Part shown: piece after piece, positions 12,523-35,476 of the stretch
Numbering within the stretch: the stretch's first letter is position 1
Layout: the number at the start of each line of letters is the position of its first letter
Assembly (NCBI GenBank): GCA_002011035.2
Contig: MTLY02000001.1
Coordinates: 320,001-384,000, forward strand
Direction: 5' to 3'
Source: Candidatus Hecatella orcuttiae
Lineage (GTDB): Archaea; Thermoproteota; Bathyarchaeia; Hecatellales; Hecatellaceae
DNA: 64,000 bases
Notes under the pieces: generated by a model
Databases searched by the model: none
The model's input: only the letters and a program-made list of their open reading frames with translations
Told to the model about the DNA's origin: nothing
Translations under genes and position numbers: made by a program

Positions 12523-12923
12523 AACTTTGGCTCCCGCCGCTTGGGCCGCTTCTCCTCCTCGGGATAGATGGCTTCAACCATCATAGTCCCCCCGCAACTG
12601 GGACAGCTGCCCATGGGCTTGGGGATGAAATCGCCCAGCTGAAAGTTGCGGAGACTTTTGAAGGCGCATTGGCTGCACTGGAGCAAGGTTAAGGTGACCT
12701 TGGGCGGAGGCAAAGACATTTGGCCGAGGATTCGGCTTACCATGAGGACGAGGAAGAGAATTCCGAGAAGACCTAAGAGGAGGGAGCCCGTGGATTCCCG
12801 GGGGCCCACTTCCATGTACTGGGCTATGCCTGAGAAGAGAAAGAACACGGCTAGGAACGCTATTAGAAGGAGAAGAAGCAAGCCGACGGGGGACTTTGGC
12901 GCAGGTTTTCCGGACACCTTCAA
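12519..12923 (-). CDS. Membrane protein with C-terminal Zn ribbon
   Basis: Two TM segments; CSQC...CPSC. Confidence 0.7.
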   Translation of the reverse strand: MKVSGKPAPKSPVGLLLLLLIAFLAVFFLFSGIAQYMEVGPRESTGSLLLGLLGILFLVLMVSRILGQMSLPPPKVTLTLLQCSQCAFKSLRNFQLGDFIPKPMGSCPSCGGTMMVEAIYPEEEKRPKRREPKF

Positions 12924-12934
12924 ACCTCCCAGGG

Positions 12935-14059
12935 TTACTGGCCTATCCCTATGGTGTTGCCTATTCCCGCTAGGATGAGGGTTTCCCCTTCCTGGGTGTT
13001 CTCCCTCACCAGCCGCTTAATCCGCTCCAAAGCTTTTTCCACGCCTTCGTAGATTTCCTTTTTCATGGGGGCTATGGCTTCCCGGAGGGATTCTTTGATG
13101 ATAACAGCGTACACCGGTATCTTATTCTTGTGGGCGATTTCCTCGATCTTAAACCTTTCAGTGCCTATGCCTCCGATGGCCGCTCCTACACCCTCAGCCA
13201 CATCCCCCGTGTTTTCACCCTCAAACTTGAGGGCTGCGTCCACCATGATGATGAGCGAGGGCTTAACGAAGCCCGAAGCCAGCAGGTTTTGAAGGGCGTC
13301 GCCCGGCTTGCCTACGTTGCCTCCTGGGCCTTCTGCTTTGAGGACGAGGGTTTTACGGCCTTCGATCTCCGTTTCGGCCATCACCATGTCTTTCTCTATC
13401 TTCTTTACCTCCTTCCCTCTCATGAGCTTGTTGACGAGGAGAGGCCCGGCGCCGTCTCCGATGGGCTGACCTTGGGCGAAGGCTTGCACGGCTCCGTCGT
13501 AGGCTGCGGCTATGTCCATGATCATGGGGAGGATCATGTGAAGCTGAGCGGTGATGATGTAGGCGTTGGTTCGTTTCCCCATCAGATAATAATGCTTCAC
13601 AATCCGGTAGATGAGGTTCAGGTCGAGGGAGGCTTCCAGAAGGTTTTCGAGGTTGTGAAGCGTGGGGTCGTCGGCTTTTGGGGCAATTCGCTTAACCTCC
13701 TCCTTCATGCTCATGTCCCTCACATCCAATAGATGGTCCAGCTTCCAAACGATACCCGCCGGGTCCATGTCCACCGGCTGGATGAAGAAGCGCTCCAGAA
13801 ACTGGTCTACCCGAGGCGTGGGGTCCTCGTTGGGTTTTCCCAGCTCTTGGACGGTGTTGAGGGAAATCTCCCTAGCCCTGTCCCTCATATACCGCAGTTT
13901 CCTCAACTGCCTTTCGATGTCGCGGTTCCACATGAACATCTGAATCTTCTGCCCGTAGAAGAAGTAGAGGAGGATGATAAACATGAAAGCGATTTGGAGA
14001 ATGTAAGCGAAGATTCCCGGCTGCTCTCCGCCTCCTAAAAGCGGTGAAAGTAAAGCCAT
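12935..14059 (-). CDS. DUF1512-family protein
   Basis: PIGDGAGP, KAEGPG..VG.PG, VDAALKFEGE, GIGNTIGIGQ C-terminus; ATG 14059 preferred. Confidence 0.8.
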   Translation of the reverse strand: MALLSPLLGGGEQPGIFAYILQIAFMFIILLYFFYGQKIQMFMWNRDIERQLRKLRYMRDRAREISLNTVQELGKPNEDPTPRVDQFLERFFIQPVDMDPAGIVWKLDHLLDVRDMSMKEEVKRIAPKADDPTLHNLENLLEASLDLNLIYRIVKHYYLMGKRTNAYIITAQLHMILPMIMDIAAAYDGAVQAFAQGQPIGDGAGPLLVNKLMRGKEVKKIEKDMVMAETEIEGRKTLVLKAEGPGGNVGKPGDALQNLLASGFVKPSLIIMVDAALKFEGENTGDVAEGVGAAIGGIGTERFKIEEIAHKNKIPVYAVIIKESLREAIAPMKKEIYEGVEKALERIKRLVRENTQEGETLILAGIGNTIGIGQ

Positions 14060-14239
14060 GAACCGTTCTCCTTCATACCTAACAGGGTTAAGATACTTCA
14101 AAAAAGAGGGAAGATTCCCTGTTATAAAGCTTTACTCTGCAAAAAAGATAGATTACTGGAGACTTTCACCATTAGCAAACAATAAATCCCATGCCTAAGA
14201 AAAGATATATAATGTACTTTTTCAGGTAGGGGAAAACCT

Positions 14240-20795: not shown

Positions 20796-21440
20796 ATGTC
20801 TTCTGAAGAAGCCTTGAAAAAGCTCTACGACGCCATCTTCGCCCAAGATGTGGAAGCCGCCTCCAAAGCCGCCAACGACTGTGTGGCCGCAGGCCTCGAC
20901 CCTCTGAAGGCCTTGGAAGCCGCCTCCAAAGCCATGACAGACCTAGGAAACCTCTTCGAGAGAGGCGAAGTCTTCCTCCCCCAAGTCGTCGTGGCAGCCG
21001 ACGCCATGAAAGCCGCTGCCCAAGTTCTTCTCTCCAAGCTGCCCACCAAACCGTCTAAAGCAGGCAGAGTCCTCATAGGCACGGTGGAGGGCGATGTCCA
21101 CGATGTCGGCAAGGGAATAGTCTCTGTTCTCCTCGACGCCGCCGGCTTCGAAGTCATCGACATAGGTCGGGATGTCCCCACCAAGGTCTTCGTCGAGAAA
21201 GTCAAAGAGCTCAAACCCAACATCGTAGGCTGCTCAGCCCTCATGACCGTCACCCGCGTAGGGCAGAAAGCCGTCATCGACGCCCTAGCGAAGGAAGGCA
21301 TAAGAGACCAGGTGAAGGTCATGGTAGGCGGAGGAGCTACCACAGGCGTTTGGGCTGAGGAAATAGGCGCCGACGCATGGGGTGAAGACGGACCGGACAG
21401 CGTGAGGAAAGCCAAAAAATTACTCGGCATAACCGAGTAG
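20796..21440 (+). CDS. mtbC: Dimethylamine corrinoid protein
   Basis: GDVHDVGK B12-binding motif, SALMT, MVGG; directly upstream of mtbB. Confidence 0.88.
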   Translation: MSSEEALKKLYDAIFAQDVEAASKAANDCVAAGLDPLKALEAASKAMTDLGNLFERGEVFLPQVVVAADAMKAAAQVLLSKLPTKPSKAGRVLIGTVEGDVHDVGKGIVSVLLDAAGFEVIDIGRDVPTKVFVEKVKELKPNIVGCSALMTVTRVGQKAVIDALAKEGIRDQVKVMVGGGATTGVWAEEIGADAWGEDGPDSVRKAKKLLGITE

Positions 21441-21457: not shown

Positions 21458-22855
21458 ATGGACTACCTAACCAGAATGGGAGACGGCCGACCGGTAAGAA
21501 TGAGCAAAGAGCAGATAAAAGCCGACATCGAAGCCGGAACCAAGGACGCGGCGGAAAAAGCCCACGTCCCCGAGCTTTCAGGAGCCGAACAAGAGCATCT
21601 GCTGGAGATCATCACCGACCCCAACCGGCTGGTAGCCGTGGAGCCGGGGAGAGAAGTCGTCCTCACCCACGACGTAGGGCCTTTGAAGGTGATGGCCGAC
21701 CAGTCCAACAGCGGAGTGAGCATCCCATGCTCCCGGGAGCAAGCCATGTGCATCTACGAGAAAGCCTTCAGCGCCGACACCGCCGAGCTGGGGCACATCG
21801 ACTACAGCTTCAAACCCGTTAAACCCATCATCACCCAGGAGCAATCGGTCCTGCAGAACGTCCTGCACATGACCATCCTCCCCATCTTCTACGGAGCCAT
21901 GCCTAACCTAGGCCTATACTACGCCCCAGACGGACCCTTCCCCGAACCCATCGGGCTCATCAAGGACCGCAAGATAGGGGAAGCAAAAGAATCCATGGAA
22001 AACGCCGCCCACAGGTTTGTGGAAGACCTAGAATACATCACCGTGAGACTCTACGAGGTAGGCTTGGACGCCTTGAACATCGACACCACCGGCGCCGGAG
22101 GCGACGCAGACTTCTACGCCTCCCTTACCGCCACGGAAAAGATAAAGAAGGAATGCCCCTACCTCTGCGTGGAAATGGGCATGGCGGGAGAATTCATCCT
22201 AGGATTCCACACCGAGCTGAAATATCAAGGCGTCAAACTGGCGGGACTCTGGCCTCACCAGCAAGCCAGCCTCGCTGAAAAGGCAGGAGTGGACATCTTC
22301 GGCCCGGTGGTCAACACCAAGCCTTCTCTGTCCTTCCCCCTCAACATCGCCAGAGCAGTCACCTTGGTCAAGCACTGCGTCAAAGAATCCAAAATCCCCA
22401 TCCACGTCAACATGGGCATGGGCGTTGGGGGAATCCCCATGTACGAAACTCCGCCGGTGGACGCTGTGACCCGGGCCAGCAAGGCAATGGTTGAAATCGC
22501 CGAGGTAGACGGCTTATAGGTGGGAGTGGGCGATCCCTTTGGGATGCCCATAGCTCACTGCGCCGCCAGCGGCATGGGAGGCATCAGGACGGCGGGAGAC
22601 ATGGTGGCTAGGATGCAGATGCTGAGATATAGGTTGAAGGACGCGAAGGACTACGTGGCCAAGAAGCTGGAAACCGACACCATGGCTCTGCGGGACGAAT
22701 TTGAGATGAGAAGGCTGAGGGAGAGGCTCAACATCGGCACTATCACAGGCGTCCCAGGGGTCGCCAGGGGCCTCGAAGCCAAAGCCCGAATCGCCGAGAT
22801 CCTCGGCATCCGCATCAACGCTGTCGAACGCCTTAAGGAACTGGTGAAACTCTAA
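21458..22855 (+). CDS. mtbB: Dimethylamine methyltransferase with pyrrolysine (in-frame TAG 22517-22519, codon 354), 465 aa
   Basis: YLTRMGDG start; VDGL-TAG-VGVGDP continues in frame to [16 protein letters not shown]. Confidence 0.95.
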
Positions 22856-22863
22856 AGAGCCAA

Positions 22864-22936
22864 GCCCAGAGCCACCGCCCACCGACCCACGCGTGAAGCG
22901 AGGGGGATGAGGGAACGGCTAAGCCTCTGGGCCACA
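22864..22936 (+). ncRNA. Box H/ACA-type guide in mtbB 3' region; pocket matches mtbB amber codon
   Basis: GCCCAGAG/CUCUGGGC stem, C-ACA, K-turn CC-GA-CCC / GGG-GAU-GA-GG, pocket CCACC + UAAGC. Confidence 0.85.
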
Positions 22937-23198
22937 AACCCCATCTTCCTTTTTTTGAGCCGGAAGTATTGTGAAGGCTGATCTTAGAAAAAGTTAAATT
23001 CAGTGCACCGCTAGCCTTTTTAGAGGTAAAAATTGAAAAAGGACGGCAGCCGCCGAGCCTGCGTATTTCAGGTGGAAGCCAAGGAAACGGCACCTGATGT
23101 AACGGTGTCTCATCTGGGAGGCAGCCTTGGAAAAACCATGCCAAATATGTTATATTTGACATAGCCTTTTTTGGGGAAGCCTTCTTTTAGGTGATTTA

Positions 23199-27342: not shown

Positions 27343-27359
27343 GGCTGATTTAATCAGCC
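27343..27359. terminator. Inverted repeat between convergent genes
   Basis: GGCTGATT-T-AATCAGCC. Confidence 0.35.
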
Positions 27360-27362
27360 AAG

Positions 27363-28847
27363 CTACCCGCGCGCAGCCCTGTCCGCTTCTTTGACGATAG
27401 CCTCCATGGAGGCCAACAGGTCTTTGTCGATGGGTGGAACCTGGTGAGTCTTCAAGATTTCCTTCGACTTTTGGTAGGCCAAGTAGGCTAGGTCCTTCTT
27501 GTCTGTTTTTTTCTCCCAAGTTCCTCGCATGTCCCTGTTCAGCAGCGTGGGGAAGGATTCCTCCGCGTCCATCCATTGGAGGGTGTGCTTCTTGGAGAGG
27601 AAGTTCCCCCCAACCCCCACCTCTTTTATGAGGTCTGTCGCCAAGGTGTCATCGTTCACAGAGATGCCCTTGGTAGCCCTCCGGCACATGGCTATGATAT
27701 CGTGGTCGATGATCAGCTGCTCCAAGCTGAACGTTTGACCCAGCTCCAGCATCCCAGCGCCGTAGATGGCATTGGCCCCCGCCAGCATGGGCAGGAGGGT
27801 GGTTATGGTCTTCTCGTGGGCAGCCTGCGCGTCGGGGAGCTTGGCATCAGCCTAGGTGCCTGCCACATAGCTGGGCAGCCCATAATACTGCGCAAGTTGC
27901 GAAACAGCGGCGCTTATCAGCCCCAGCTCCGGCGCTCCCACGGGTGCTGTGGCCGTCCTGAGGTCGAACATGGTGGTGGAGCTGCCGTAGATGACAGGTG
28001 CACCGGGCTCTGTCAGCTGGGCGAGGACGATGCCTGAGAGCACTTCTGCGTTATGGGTCACCAAAGTGCCGGCCAACGTCACGGGGCCTGTAGCTCCAGA
28101 CATGGCCATGCTTAGCACGTTCACCGGGATGTCGTAGCGGGCTCCTTGGATGATGACTCCGCAGGCGTTGGCGTGCAGCTGGAGGGGACTGGTGGGACAC
28201 AGCAACACGGATATGATGGGCCTCTTCCTGAAGGCTTCTTCGTCGCCTCCATAGTAGGCGACACCCATCTTGAAGTAGTACTCCATGTGCTCAGCCACCG
28301 GGTCGACGTGGTGGAAGTGTTTTCTCGTCCCCACCCAGGAAGTGAAGGTTTCGTGGACGTCCGAAGCCAAGCCTTCCATCAGAAGCTCTCTGGCTGCACA
28401 GGGCAGGGAGAAGAAGTCGATGGTGGAGCACCAATCTGCAAGGACAGCGGCTTCATAGACGTCTTGATTGTTCGACTCTCGAATGGAATTGGTTTCATAT
28501 TCGTAGGTGTACAGCCCCGTGCCGAAGGTAGTGTTACCCACTTTTCTTCCAGCCTCTAGAAGCACGTCGCTTCCCTTTTCACGGCCGGCTAAAAGGACTC
28601 GGCCGGGACACTTGTGGAGGGCGTCCTTAACGATGTGCTCAGGAATCCTCACCATGCGTTTCACCGGGTCAACGTCACATCCTCCCTTTTTGAAGATTTC
28701 CAAAGCCTCTTCATGGTAGACTCCAACTCCGCTGGTCTTCAATACGTCCATCGTCTCCGAGTTGATGCGGTCTAGGGCGTCTCTGGAAAGTAGCTCCAAC
28801 CTAGCTCCTTGAACCATGTCAAGTCCGGCGAAGAGTTTCACTGGCAT
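27363..28847 (-). CDS. mttB: Trimethylamine methyltransferase with pyrrolysine (in-frame TAG 27854-27852), ~494 aa
   Basis: YGLPSYVAGT-TAG-ADAKLPDAQAAHEKT...GANAIYGAGMLE; ATG 28847 after GGAGGTGA; final stop is also TAG. Confidence 0.95.
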
Positions 28848-29644: not shown

Positions 29645-29861
29645 AGGAGAACAACCCCTGTCGTTTCACCCCCAACTAGTAAACATTGTTTGCATTAAAA
29701 AATTTTTCCAGCTACTACTTTTCTGGTAGCGGGGAAGCGGCAGAAAAATTGAGCGGTTTAAATAATTAATGTAAGCAGATTCAAAAAAATCTCTGATTTA
29801 GATAAACCAATTTATAGGGGAAAGATAAAAGTACAAATTGGTGAACTGCGAAAAAATTGAT

Positions 29862-29929
29862 GGGGGATCGGCCGGGGGGCCACAAGAGTTCTAACCTCTT
29901 GGAGCCGGGTTCGACTCCCGGATCCCTCG
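29862..29929 (+). tRNA. pylT: tRNA-Pyl (anticodon CUA at 29891-29893)
   Basis: GGGGGAU/AUCCCUC acceptor, single C linker, GGCC-GGGG-GGCC D arm, 6-bp CAAGAG/CUCUUG anticodon stem, 3-nt variable loop, CCGGG-UUCGACU-CCCGG, G discriminator, no encoded CCA. Confidence 0.95.
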
Positions 29930-29969
29930 GCACAGGAAAAGGGCTTATTTAAAATCTATGTGAGCTTCC

Positions 29970-31932: not shown

Positions 31933-33141
31933 ATGCCCGTCAAAACCTTATGCATCGCAGGCGGACGGCTTCAGGGAATTGAGGCTGCCTACCTTGCCAG
32001 AAAAGCCGGATACAAAACAGTGCTCGTAGACCGGAGAGCCAAGCCACCTGCCTCAACGCTCGTTGACAACTTCAAGAGACTGGACGTGGCGAAGGATAAA
32101 GGCAGGTTGAAGAAAGCAGTAGAGGAAAGCGACGCAGTCTTACCAGCTCTAGAGGACGAAGAAGCCTTACGGGTTCTGGAAGAAACTTGCTGCCAGGCAG
32201 GGGTTCCCTACCTGCAGGATAACAGCGCCTTCGCCGTCACCTCCAATAAAATCCAGTCTCAGAGCTTCTTCAGGAAAATGGGCCTTCCAACTCCAGAAAT
32301 CTGGCCTCGATGCCGGCTGCCCGTGATAGTCAAGCCCGCTCATGCGAGCGGAAGCACCAGCATATACAAGGTGGAAAGGATAGAGGAGCTGAGCCAAGCT
32401 GTGGATGCTGTGTTGAAGACAGACCGTGAATACCTGATCCAAGAATACGTGGAAGGCCCATCCTTGTCCTTGGAGGTTTTATCCTGGAACGGCGAAGGGC
32501 AGCCTCTTCAGGTCACAGGCCTAGAATTCGACCGAACCTTCGGCTGCAAACGGGTTGTGGCTCCATGCCGGCTTGATAGCTTTCTGGAGGAAGAGATATT
32601 CGAAATGGGAAGGAGGATGGCTGAAGGGCTGAACCTATCGGGTTTAACTGATGTTCAATTAATCCTAGGCCCACAGGGGATCAGGGTCATAGAGATGAAC
32701 GCTAGGCTGCCAAGTCAAACACCTACGGTGGTATACCATTCAACCGGCGTAAACATGGTTGAATTGCTCTGCTCACTTTTCACCCAAGGCAATCTGCGCC
32801 CTGTGAAAATACCCGACCAGAAGGCTGTCATCTACCAGCATGTGAAAATTGAAGGAAAGCAACTGACAGTGACAGGAGAGCACAGCCTCTCGGACGCTGA
32901 AGGCTTGAGGTTTGAGAAAAACTTCATGGGAGCGGATGAAGCCGTCACCAACCTCAACCCTGAGGGGGAGGCTGAAGGATGTGTAGCAACATTGATAACC
33001 GTGAGCCGTCGCCTCCGAGACGCGAAAAAGAAAATGGAAAAATCCGTGAACTCCCTTCGACACCGTTATGGGCTCACCGGCTTCTCTGACCCCTCACCAG
33101 AAGGTTTGAGGCAGAAGTTCTATGACGAGATTGACTCCTGA
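31933..33141 (+). CDS. pylC: 3-methylornithine--L-lysine ligase (ATP-grasp)
   Basis: GGRLQGIEAAYLA, QEYVEGPSLSLEV, EMNARLPSQTP. Confidence 0.93.
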   Translation: MPVKTLCIAGGRLQGIEAAYLARKAGYKTVLVDRRAKPPASTLVDNFKRLDVAKDKGRLKKAVEESDAVLPALEDEEALRVLEETCCQAGVPYLQDNSAFAVTSNKIQSQSFFRKMGLPTPEIWPRCRLPVIVKPAHASGSTSIYKVERIEELSQAVDAVLKTDREYLIQEYVEGPSLSLEVLSWNGEGQPLQVTGLEFDRTFGCKRVVAPCRLDSFLEEEIFEMGRRMAEGLNLSGLTDVQLILGPQGIRVIEMNARLPSQTPTVVYHSTGVNMVELLCSLFTQGNLRPVKIPDQKAVIYQHVKIEGKQLTVTGEHSLSDAEGLRFEKNFMGADEAVTNLNPEGEAEGCVATLITVSRRLRDAKKKMEKSVNSLRHRYGLTGFSDPSPEGLRQKFYDEIDS

Positions 33142-33949
33142 GATTTTAAAGCCCATCCCCGAGACGGTTCCCCGATTTGATGAGGAGTTAAAAGCTAAAA
33201 TCGGCGTCAGCCTTCTGGAAGCAGCCCTCCGCGCAGCCGACTGCGGTGCAGCCGTAGAGAGGGCGTTGAAACGCTGTCGGGCCGCCGTTGTACCCATAAC
33301 TTCCGGGGAAGGCATCATTCCCGGCTTCGCTGAGGCTGTGGCATCCACTCTCCGCCATTTGGGATTGCAGGCTGAGCCAACCCGGAATTCGGACGTTCGG
33401 GGGTTCATCGAGGCTTTGGAGAAAAAATGTCAGCTCCTCTTCGCCGCCGACGACCATGTTTTCGCAGGCATGAACCTTCGAAATTTTAAGGTAGTGGACA
33501 ACGCCCCTGCCACCGGCCGAGGCTATGCGGCGGTTTTGGAATTAAAGCTAAAGGAGAAAAGTAAGTGCGCAGCAGTCATCGGAGTGGGAAAGGTGGGCTC
33601 CGCCGCCGTCGCTTATCTAGCTGGAAGAGGGTTTCCGGTTTATATCTACGATTCAAACCGCGCCAAAGCTGAGCATGTGAAAAACACGAACCCGGGGAGA
33701 AACATTCAGGTATGCAGCTCTGTGGAAGAATGTTTCAGCAAAGCTAGGGGAGTCATCTTGGCAGCTCCAGCCGCCAACTTGGTGACGGAGGCCATGGTGG
33801 ACGAAGACACCGTGATAGCCGCCCCGGGGATTCCTTTGGGACTCACAGCGGAGGCAAGGCGGAAGCTTCCTGAGAGGAATCTTATCCACGAACCTCTCAT
33901 GCTGGGAGTGGCGACTATGGCGGTGGAGCTTCTCAAACCTAAACCCTAA
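33122..33949 (+). CDS. pylD: Pyrrolysine synthase (dehydrogenase)
   Basis: MTRLT, VPITSGEGII, ADD, DNAPATGRGY, GVGKVG, IHEPLMLGVATM. Confidence 0.93.
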   Translation: MTRLTPEILKPIPETVPRFDEELKAKIGVSLLEAALRAADCGAAVERALKRCRAAVVPITSGEGIIPGFAEAVASTLRHLGLQAEPTRNSDVRGFIEALEKKCQLLFAADDHVFAGMNLRNFKVVDNAPATGRGYAAVLELKLKEKSKCAAVIGVGKVGSAAVAYLAGRGFPVYIYDSNRAKAEHVKNTNPGRNIQVCSSVEECFSKARGVILAAPAANLVTEAMVDEDTVIAAPGIPLGLTAEARRKLPERNLIHEPLMLGVATMAVELLKPKP

Positions 33950-34084: not shown

Positions 34085-35476
34085 TTAGAAGGTGAACTTC
34101 AACCCTAGTCCTTCCAAGGTCTCCACAGCCTTCCCGTAGACCTCCACGTACTCCGGTGTAGGAGTCACTTTAACCACGTCGTAGCATTGCTGGAATGTCT
34201 TACCCTGAGGCGGGTTCCTGTAGTTTCCCTCGTAAAGGGATATCAGCTTGTCCAAGATCTCGTTCACAGTCTCCACCTTCATCCCAGCCACAGCCTTGGC
34301 AGCTTCACCCATAATCCTCGCCTCCATACCTGTGGTGTAATCCAAGGCCACACCCTTAGCCGCAGCGGACCCAGACATCAGCTCCCGGCCGCTGCCTGTG
34401 TCCGTGATGGCCTGCGCAGCCGTTTCCAGGAGACACATCTCCGTGCAAGGCTGGGCTAGAGGATAGTACTGGTTGGAAGTCAACAGGTGCGTGTTGGCGT
34501 CGATGGCCATGTTGCAGTGCCCAGCCACCGTCAAGGGCTCCCGGGCGGTGGTGATCCCCCACCTGACATGAACAGGCCCGTCTAGGTGGAAGTCGGCGTT
34601 GCAGATGGTGAAGGCGATGAGGTGGGAGGACACGTCCACGATGGTGGTTTCCTCCAAGCCGCCGGCGTAGCCGCCGAAAGTGGGCATCTGCTCGATCATG
34701 ATGATGTCGCCGTTCATGATCCACCCTGCTATCATCTGAAGCCCTCCTAGGTCCACCTTCAACTCGTTGAGCAGGGACATTTCATGGGGGTCAGACGCCC
34801 TCATGCCGCCTTCGAAGTCGGCGGCAATTCGCCCCGCAGGGCTTAGGGGCGTCTCTGGTCCCTATAAGCCCATGCCAGGCCTGCCCACCTTATGGCAGGC
34901 TTGCCTGACTAAAGCGACCTCCATTCTTGTCCCTTTGATTTCCCAAGGCGAGTTGGGGAAGGGCTCGTTTCCTTCCACGGTGTTCATCACTCCGCTGACA
35001 ATACAGTCGACAATGGCTTCCTGAGCGTAGCTTTGCATCATGGGAAGGAAAATTTCCTCCGAAACCGGAGCGCCTGTAGGTCCGCCTTGGACGATAGGCC
35101 ATCGGGAGTCTTGAGGAGACCTGGGAACCATGTCCACGGCGTCCCTTCCTTCGCCGATGACCAGCTTATCAGGGGCTTTCTTGATGGCCTCCTTGACCTC
35201 TTCCTCGGTGACTTTTATAACCCGACCGGTGTTGATGCAGTAGACGCCGTTCTGAACCAGCATCTCCATGCCGGCTAGGAACAGGCTGTTGATGGTGTCC
35301 TTGTCGGTGGGTATGACTTCCTTTTCATTGAACTTTATCCCGTATTTCTTCTTGAGCGCCGACGCGCTTTGAGGGATAATTTTAAAGTCCCATTCTTTTT
35401 CGGAAACCTTAGGCCCTGTCTTAGCTCTGTTGAAAGCTTCAAACACGTCTACCGGTCTTTCCACAACTTTTTTCAA
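34085..35476 (-). CDS. mtmB: Monomethylamine methyltransferase with pyrrolysine (in-frame TAG 34864-34862, codon 205), 463 aa
   Basis: GRPGMGL-TAG-GPETPLS...LNELK...PCTEM...TGMEAR continuous frame. Confidence 0.95.

Follow-up and report, generated by a model that had tools for sequence, protein, structure and literature searches.

Classic single-hairpin H/ACA guide RNAs of archaea, such as those of Pyrococcus (Pab/Pf) and sR115 and sR435 of S. islandicus, are built of a lower stem, a bipartite pocket and an upper stem carrying a K-turn, with the ACA 14-15 nt off and two target bases left unpaired (PMC2377435, PMC11077068). The archaeal rule counts the 14-15 nt from the target, the functional guides of Pyrococcus have 5-6 bp with at most one bulge between pocket and K-turn, and the 3′ guide weighs more than the 5′ guide (PMC2377435). 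Functional archaeal guides get by with 8-11 bp, and some do without ACA and lower stem; these atypical H/ACA RNAs of Pyrobaculum and Sulfolobus work with the standard Cbf5, and Pyrococcus proteins take guides of foreign origin (PMC11077068). Designer H/ACA guides made for yeast by the Yu laboratory follow the same logic, with the pocket set on the U of a UAG, and the resulting PsiAG (Psi, pseudouridine) is read through (PMC7430670). PYLIS (RF02509 in Rfam) and SECIS are cis RNA elements for stop-codon recoding. Archaeal and eukaryotic SECIS elements lie in the 3′ UTR, and the K-turn of the eukaryotic SECIS is bound by an L7Ae-family domain. For pyrrolysine (Pyl), no mechanism of conditional UAG suppression has been identified, according to PMC12626013. 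Among the titles and abstracts listed, our literature search turned up none connecting the pyrrolysine codon with either H/ACA guides or pseudouridine.

A hairpin behind the dimethylamine methyltransferase gene mtbB of Candidatus Hecatella orcuttiae shares with the classic guides the lower stem, the bipartite pocket, the K-turn in the upper stem, the distance of the ACA and the two unpaired target bases. Unlike them, it would target an mRNA codon, the Pyl UAG of its own carrier gene, with no target in the rRNA that we scanned. It also differs from them in its 3′ UTR location, in an upper helix that is irregular in the window (the whole 64,000-nt stretch analysed) and in having no Rfam match. 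Judged by its sequence, the hairpin has most of the defining features of a classic single-hairpin archaeal guide and is not a plain member of that class. Compared with the atypical type of Pyrobaculum and Sulfolobus, the window has both lower stem and ACA, and two related hairpins from Methanomethylicus (L036 and L076, described below) lack the ACA only. The yeast designer guides are artificial and eukaryotic, whereas the mtbB hairpin occurs naturally in an archaeon, is encoded in cis and comes with a cognate suppressor tRNA. Like PYLIS and SECIS, it would be a cis element for stop-codon recoding. PYLIS, a local stem 3′ of the UAG, is present in the window as well (22517-22616); the mtbB hairpin would pair with the flanks of the codon and not serve as a landing pad for a protein or elongation factor.

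A hairpin between mtbB and a U-tract

The window (G000:C1:320001-384000) lies in the 1.75-Mb genome of Ca. Hecatella orcuttiae, which shares its GTDB phylum with Ca. Methanomethylicus; the classes differ. Its mtbB, with one in-frame TAG at 22517-19, is preceded by the genes for a B12-binding corrinoid protein and an ammonium transporter. The mtbB mRNA would be the host of both the candidate guide hairpin and the target UAG. Rfam places PYLIS_2 at this codon and PYLIS_3 in mttB. The host genome codes for Cbf5, Nop10, Gar1 and two L7Ae-family genes. Its cbf5 occupies two reading frames because a 20-nt insertion after the GHGGTL motif shifts the frame; we take this insertion to be probably the short intron known from crenarchaeal cbf5. 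Counting the stops of all open reading frames of at least 300 codons in the whole genome, we obtained TAG in 208 of 803, TAA in 310 and TGA in 285. By this crude count, made with no gene calling, TAG is not depleted as a stop in this Pyl-encoding genome. The features of the locus are as follows (positions are those of the window unless a contig is given).

20796-21437: B12-binding corrinoid protein, upstream of mtbB
21458..22855, +: mtbB (dimethylamine methyltransferase), read-through open reading frame with in-frame TAG; Pfam Dimeth_Pyl, E 1e-206
22512..22516, +: 5′ target flank GCUUA, pairs with the 3′ arm UAAGC
22517..22519, +: pyrrolysine codon UAG of mtbB and start of PYLIS_2 (Rfam); U22517 proposed target, A22518 second unpaired base
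22517-22616: PYLIS_2 (Rfam)
22519..22523, +: 3′ target flank GGUGG, pairs with the 5′ arm CCACC; just 5′ of the PYLIS stem
22526-35 with 22541-51: local PYLIS stem, 3′ of the target flanks
22864..22871, +: 5′ strand of the lower stem, all 8 positions in Watson-Crick pairs with 22925-32
22872..22876, +: CCACC, the 5′ arm of the guide pocket; no listed change in the X9 strain
22877..22919, +: upper part, with pocket-top pairs, internal loop, K-turn motif and apical stem-loop
22877-79 with 22917-19, +: pocket-top pairs, 3 bp, internal loop above
22882-83 with 22911-12, +: NC pairs of the K-turn
22884-85, +: GA of the K-turn, opposite GAU-GA 22906-10 (bulge GAU 22906-08, GA 22909-10)
22886-88 with 22903-05, +: C-stem of the K-turn
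22890-22900, +: apical stem-loop
22920..22924, +: UAAGC, the 3′ arm of the guide pocket; the same in L116 and L117, no listed change in X9
22925..22932, +: lower stem, 3′ strand; pairs with 22864-71
22934..22936, +: ACA box, 1 nt past the lower stem; 14 nt separate it from the pocket top (U22920)
22950..22956, +: U-tract, likely transcription terminator
29861-29931: tRNA-Pyl (ARAGORN)
33122-33946: PylD
G000:C3:210886-211856: cbf5, in two reading frames
G000:C3:406540-410934, -: locus of the second mtbB of the host genome (mtbB2, L034)

The hairpin (22864-22936) begins 8 nt past the mtbB stop codon (22853-55) and ends before the U-tract at 22950-56. We compared it with an H/ACA descriptor that calls for a lower stem of at least 7 bp, an internal loop of 5-11 nt per strand and an ANA 14-15 nt from the target U. 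The window has a stem of 8 bp, a loop of 5+5 nt and an ACA (22934-36) within that range, 14 nt from U22920. A K-turn motif with tandem sheared G-A pairs and a 3-nt GAU bulge is recognizable at the sequence level, with GA 22884-85 facing GAU-GA 22906-10. A first-pass annotation had described the hairpin in these terms, and its letters and coordinates for arms, target flanks, stem and distances all hold. The helix between pocket and K-turn departs from the 5-6 bp of functional guides (the H2 helix), since it consists of 3 bp, an internal loop and 2 bp; three of the six upper-stem pairs of its relatives are unpaired in the window. The annotation had also noted a competing fold that partly closes the pocket, and this fold, pairing 22875-80 with 22911-18, is in fact the minimum free energy (MFE) structure. 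The fold z-score of the single window sequence is unremarkable (-1.12), and the case thus rests on comparison and not on folding energy. Searching 22450-23000 against Rfam, we obtained PYLIS_2 only, with no match to an H/ACA family at E<=10.

The pocket pairs with both flanks of the UAG at 10 of 10 positions and leaves only U22517-A22518 unpaired, exactly as had been annotated. When the 213 U of the mtbB mRNA are scored against this pocket, that of the UAG reaches 10 and the runner-up 5. The target flanks fall in a single-stranded stretch just 5′ of the PYLIS stem, so that pocket and PYLIS are compatible. A genome-wide search for the exact 12-nt target pattern (3.5 Mb, both strands), as the annotation had suggested, returned the mtbB UAG together with a second site at C3:26987. 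A host rRNA target had been named as the observation that would count against the match; in the 16S and 23S genes, in any register, at most 7 of 11 pocket bases are paired. A loose scan of the 3.5 Mb on both strands gave about six other hairpin-like sites of the CCACC...UAAGC type (5+5), which puts the chance of one inside this 100-nt UTR at about 2e-4, before K-turn and ACA are counted. Two other searches were too permissive, namely an unconstrained pocket search, in which the UAG ranked 3rd to 14th, and an RNAduplex scan of the UTR against the coding sequence, in which the UAG region came third of about 470 windows. RNAcofold of hairpin plus target, a check that the annotation had proposed, is unsuited to this complex, which is a pseudoknot with the lower stem; it opened that stem and scored shuffled targets alike.

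Related hairpins and their pockets

Performing a protein-guided search for mtbB, we took the best 80 of 318 metagenome matches and the best 80 of 496 genome matches, and further hairpins may exist beyond these. Seven of the 166 mtbB loci had no D-x-O-V/I-G motif and were dropped (L063, L070, L120, L141, L147, L182 and L193). A DNA search of 40 related genomes with 22700-23000 gave no match. The gene itself is rare among the genomes searched (4/301 in the class, 3/401 in the phylum and 2/62 in the class of G554). Related hairpins stand behind mtbB in at least five other sequences, which are two metagenome contigs, two Methanomethylicus genomes and the mtbB2 of the host.

The two metagenome contigs (L116 and L117) are the closest among the matches listed, with MtbB 76-77% identical to that of the window, and both carry a clearly homologous hairpin directly past the mtbB stop. 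Three of the eight lower-stem pairs are changed on both sides between window, L116 and L117, and all are still paired. Both contigs have a regular 6-bp upper stem, within the 5-6 bp of the H2 helix and including one compensatory pair. They keep the K-turn motif, and their ACA stands one base past the lower stem, as in the window. A further strain, known from a DNA contig of run X9, is about 89% identical to the window; the changes listed for it spare the arms, the lower stem, the ACA and the GA of the K-turn and place seven in the rest of the upper part, with six further differences outside the listed changes.

More distant hairpins stand behind mtbB of Ca. Methanomethylicus mesodigestus (L036, the same as L119 and L196; MtbB 71% identical), of a second Methanomethylicus genome (L076, the same as L197; 57%) and behind the host's own mtbB2 on C3 (L034; 57%). 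Their stems have no sequence in common with those of the window. The mtbB2 hairpin has an 8-bp lower stem and an ACA at the same 14-nt distance, and U-tracts lie downstream of the two Methanomethylicus hairpins as well. Taken over the six mtbB hairpins, the lower stem is kept in all, and the ACA stands at the canonical distance in four (window, L116, L117 and L034). The K-turn motif is found in the window, L116, L117 and L076, is weak in L034 and deviates in L036. A covariance model built from window, L116 and L117 (R1) matches only those three among 11 loci, and only the window hairpin in the host genome. The 4-6 hairpins probably descend from one ancestor, and the independent lineages are few. 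This conservation supports the reading of the hairpin as a real H/ACA-like RNA of the mtbB 3′ UTR.

We then compared each pocket with the codon context of its own gene. The window sets the arms UAAGC/CCACC against GCUUA-UA-GGUGG. The two Methanomethylicus hairpins set UACA/CAACC against their own UGUA-UA-GGUUG, and mtbB2 sets AAUGC/CACC against its GCAUU-UA-GGUG. Three of the five homologues (L036, L076 and L034) thus have arms unlike those of the window, and these fit the flanks of their own UAG. Relative to the window, five changes are compensated on both partners, at -1, at -3 (two different changes), at -4 and at +5. In none of these four loci does any other of the 213-320 U of the own mRNA come close to that of the UAG as a target, with pocket scores of 9-10 for the latter against 4.5-6 for the next best. 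The four good matches all leave exactly U and A unpaired. When the pockets were tabulated against all contexts, the own context gave the best fit each time, identical contexts aside. For L036 and L076, the MFE alone opens the internal loop that defines the arms CAACC and UACA.

Some pocket borders had been chosen with the target known, and a blind scan of the 153 unique mtbB loci was run as well. A locus passed if the pocket formed 8 or more pairs, no more than one of them G-U, and if the upper and lower stems measured at least 2 and 5 bp, respectively. Four of the 153 loci passed, and these were the window, L036, L076 and L034. When the contexts were swapped, a mean of 0.62 and a maximum of 2 loci passed in 40 runs. 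With a K-turn-like motif added, three loci passed, against 0.03 with swapped contexts. We conclude that the match between hairpin and UAG is not due to chance. Short as the arms are, these data support selection on the pocket for pairing with the two flanks of the Pyl UAG.

Some features do not fit this pattern. L116, L117 and X9 have GUA instead of GUG after the UAG, and their 5′ arm is unadjusted. In the homologous register their 3′ arm forms 5 pairs and their 5′ arm only 3, each arm leaving its topmost guide base unpaired, and the perfect 5+5 match is peculiar to the window. The 5+3 pattern agrees with the dominance of the 3′ guide (PMC2377435). L036 and L076 have no ANA box, and their upper stems measure 8 and 7 bp, respectively. 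No hairpin was found behind mtbB of L118, whose MtbB is 71% identical. No such pocket hairpin was found at the Methanosarcinales and bacterial loci among the 153 scanned, nor behind the Pyl-containing mttB and mtmB of the host genome. Scanning the genome for guides to the UAGs of mttB and mtmB, we obtained only loose 4+4 noise among the matches listed. A pattern search for trans guides in three genomes of genus g80 returned fewer matches than its reversed control.

Further RNA features of the genome and near pyrrolysine genes

An H/ACA descriptor scan of the host genome was noisy and yielded one convincing classic candidate. This candidate, at C2:62228-62284 (+), combines a lower stem of 6 bp and an upper stem of 4 bp with a pocket, an ACA and a K-loop-like GAUGA...UGA apex, and forms 5+7 pairs (2 G-U) with 16S position 1206. 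The 16S gene (G000:C2:464353-466521) covers 2169 nt against a model of 1478 positions, and the two 23S copies (C2:467043-470232 and C3:827-4683) differ by about 670 nt in length. These long insertions suggest introns in the rRNA genes. Part of a second 16S is present at the end of a contig.

Over the first 13 nt past the mtbB2 stop, the sequence is perfectly antisense to positions 8-20 nt after the Pyl UAG of the same gene, and a degenerate H/ACA-like hairpin begins 20 nt past the stop. The two might combine into an extended guide.

A different conserved RNA occupies the mtbB 3′ UTR at four loci (L031, L032, L033 and L035) in three genomes of genus g80, which belongs to the class of the window. 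It has a basal stem of 7-8 bp with a K-turn motif (GA opposite GAU-GA) directly on it, a long C-stem that ends in an apical hairpin and, on the 3′ side, one additional hairpin; it has no pocket and no ACA. Many compensatory changes are seen among the four copies. At L031 and L032, the first 10-11 nt of the UTR are exactly antisense to the post-UAG stretch (13 bp with G-U).

The mttB of the window (27343-27365, 27840-27854, -) ends in a second UAG (27365-63), and the CUUGGC behind it is the complement of the GCCAAG 7-12 nt after the mttB Pyl UAG (27854-52). A strand of its terminator-like hairpin (27349-43) complements the 7 nt from the G of the Pyl UAG onwards. The ending UAG plus CUUGGC recurs in the mttB of a Methanomethylicus genome (L202, G384). 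In mtmB (34839-34871, -), the Pyl UAG (34864-62) sits in the loop of a local hairpin, in which the 7 nt before the UAG pair with 7 nt beginning 17 nt after it. This hairpin uses the same GGCUUA/UAAGCC pairing as mtbB and has no conserved counterpart in the mtmB of G554. Genome-wide, and including 12896-14101 and 34085-35476 in the window, there are 12 MtmB-family and 4 MttB-family genes, with an in-frame TAG in one of each only; non-Pyl paralogues are thus many.

Candidate guide function and competing readings

Our preferred reading, which we hold tentatively as just short of probable, is that the hairpin is an H/ACA-type guide that would convert UAG to PsiAG and thereby favour pyrrolysine insertion. 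The geometry speaks for it; two unpaired bases of the form U-N at the foot of the upper stem, 14 nt from an ACA and with a K-turn nearby, point to a pseudouridylation of U22517 catalysed by Cbf5. The mtbB 3′ UTR would carry a single-hairpin guide RNA with its probable end at the U-tract, and trimming may turn it into a stable small RNP of about 75 nt. L7Ae would bind the K-turn, and Cbf5-Nop10-Gar1 the lower stem and ACA. The arms would pair with GCUUA and GGUGG beside the Pyl codon, in cis or on other mtbB transcripts, and place U22517 in the active site of Cbf5. The resulting PsiAG would still be read by tRNA-Pyl (anticodon CUA) and would be a poorer substrate for the release factor. Pyrrolysine insertion would be favoured in this way at one particular UAG, in a genome that freely uses TAG as a stop. 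With TAG ending 208 of the 803 long open reading frames, such site-specific help at the Pyl UAG is plausible.

Two further considerations speak against the guide reading. Under coupled transcription and translation, the first ribosomes would reach the UAG before a guide in cis exists. In bacterial systems in vitro, a pseudouridine in the stop codon had only a modest influence on release. The effect on decoding that we assume for Psi is taken by analogy from yeast, the only setting for which it is known (PMC7430670). The annotation had put forward the guide reading itself. The conserved H/ACA-like RNA and the co-variation of arms and target support it in part, while the irregular upper helix of the window and the two homologues without ANA do not fit it.

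The main alternative, which we consider unlikely though deserving of weight, keeps the pairing and dispenses with catalysis. A K-turn hairpin, perhaps bound by L7Ae, would clamp the UAG flanks and regulate mtbB by holding back translation of the 3′ part, by shielding the site or by folding the mRNA until Pyl-tRNA is available, and the H/ACA shape would be inherited scaffolding. The cleanest pockets (L036 and L076) suit it well, having no ANA box and upper stems above the functional 5-6 bp, as does the irregular upper stem of the window. Other mtbB and mttB 3′ ends are plainly antisense to the post-UAG stretch, over 13 nt in L034, over 10-11 nt in L031 and L032 (13 bp with G-U) and also in the mttB of the window, which suggests that the RNA-RNA contact itself is selected. 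A clamp leaves the ACA unexplained, however, which is at exactly the canonical distance in four of six hairpins. It also has no obvious use for the unpaired U and A of all four good matches, which is the substrate geometry of H/ACA guides. Guides without ACA are functional in Sulfolobus (PMC11077068), and this is relevant to L036 and L076. Moreover, a pairing that covers the codon must melt before decoding. From the known size and footprint of the ribosomal mRNA channel, we infer that a pairing which includes the G of the UAG cannot persist in the A site. The contact would then act only before decoding, and a lasting mark such as Psi fits this better than a roadblock.

It is improbable, in our estimate, that the selected contact is a long-range antisense of the 3′ UTR to the PYLIS region, with the pocket match secondary. 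Here 22876-82 and 22886-90 would pair with 22520-32, akin to long-distance read-through stimulators. Read by eye, the window offers 12 possible pairs with a 1x3 loop, the duplex scan placed the UAG region third, as given above, and there are strong analogues in L034, L031, L032 and the mttB 3′ end (window and G384). In the window, however, neither the K-turn hairpin nor the local PYLIS stem would survive this pairing. Its position is not conserved in L116 and L117, where just a 6-mer is common (chance about 0.3). The lower stem, the ACA, the K-turn and the co-varying 3′ arm would remain unexplained.

The hairpin might also be an ordinary H/ACA sRNA for rRNA or tRNA that lies behind mtbB by position, with a coincidental UAG match. 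It has the shape of that class, and the other perfect 12-nt site at C3:26987 would sit well with a coincidence. Yet the best rRNA match remains at 7 of 11 pairs, the arms differ between lineages and follow the mtbB flanks, and the position directly behind mtbB is kept in six loci among the matches listed; we regard this reading as very improbable. A terminator or stabilising hairpin with a chance match is disfavoured and hardly credible, since its place between stop codon and U-tract and its fold z-score of -1.12 stand against stems kept by compensatory changes, a conserved K-turn and ACA, the swapped-context permutation test and the roughly 2e-4 chance of a loose 5+5 match in this UTR.

Returning to the guide reading, we would extend it, as a possibility that falls some way short of probable, to a strategy of some Thermoproteota. 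These would mark the Pyl codon chemically, through a 3′-UTR guide and Cbf5, as PsiAG, and so bias decoding to tRNA-Pyl over termination. If true, RNA-guided recoding of a stop codon would have its first natural example and archaeal H/ACA guides their first mRNA target, and the range of the archaeal H/ACA RNPs would extend from rRNA, tRNA and crRNA to mRNA. Nature would then be using the nonsense-suppression trick that has been engineered in yeast. The ambiguity between Pyl-UAG and stop-UAG is real in this organism, where about a quarter of the long open reading frames end in TAG, and the guide would be a site-specific answer to a UAG that means both stop and pyrrolysine. Even without pseudouridine, a conserved RNA of the 3′ UTR, pairing to either side of a recoded codon, would be a new kind of recoding-linked element.
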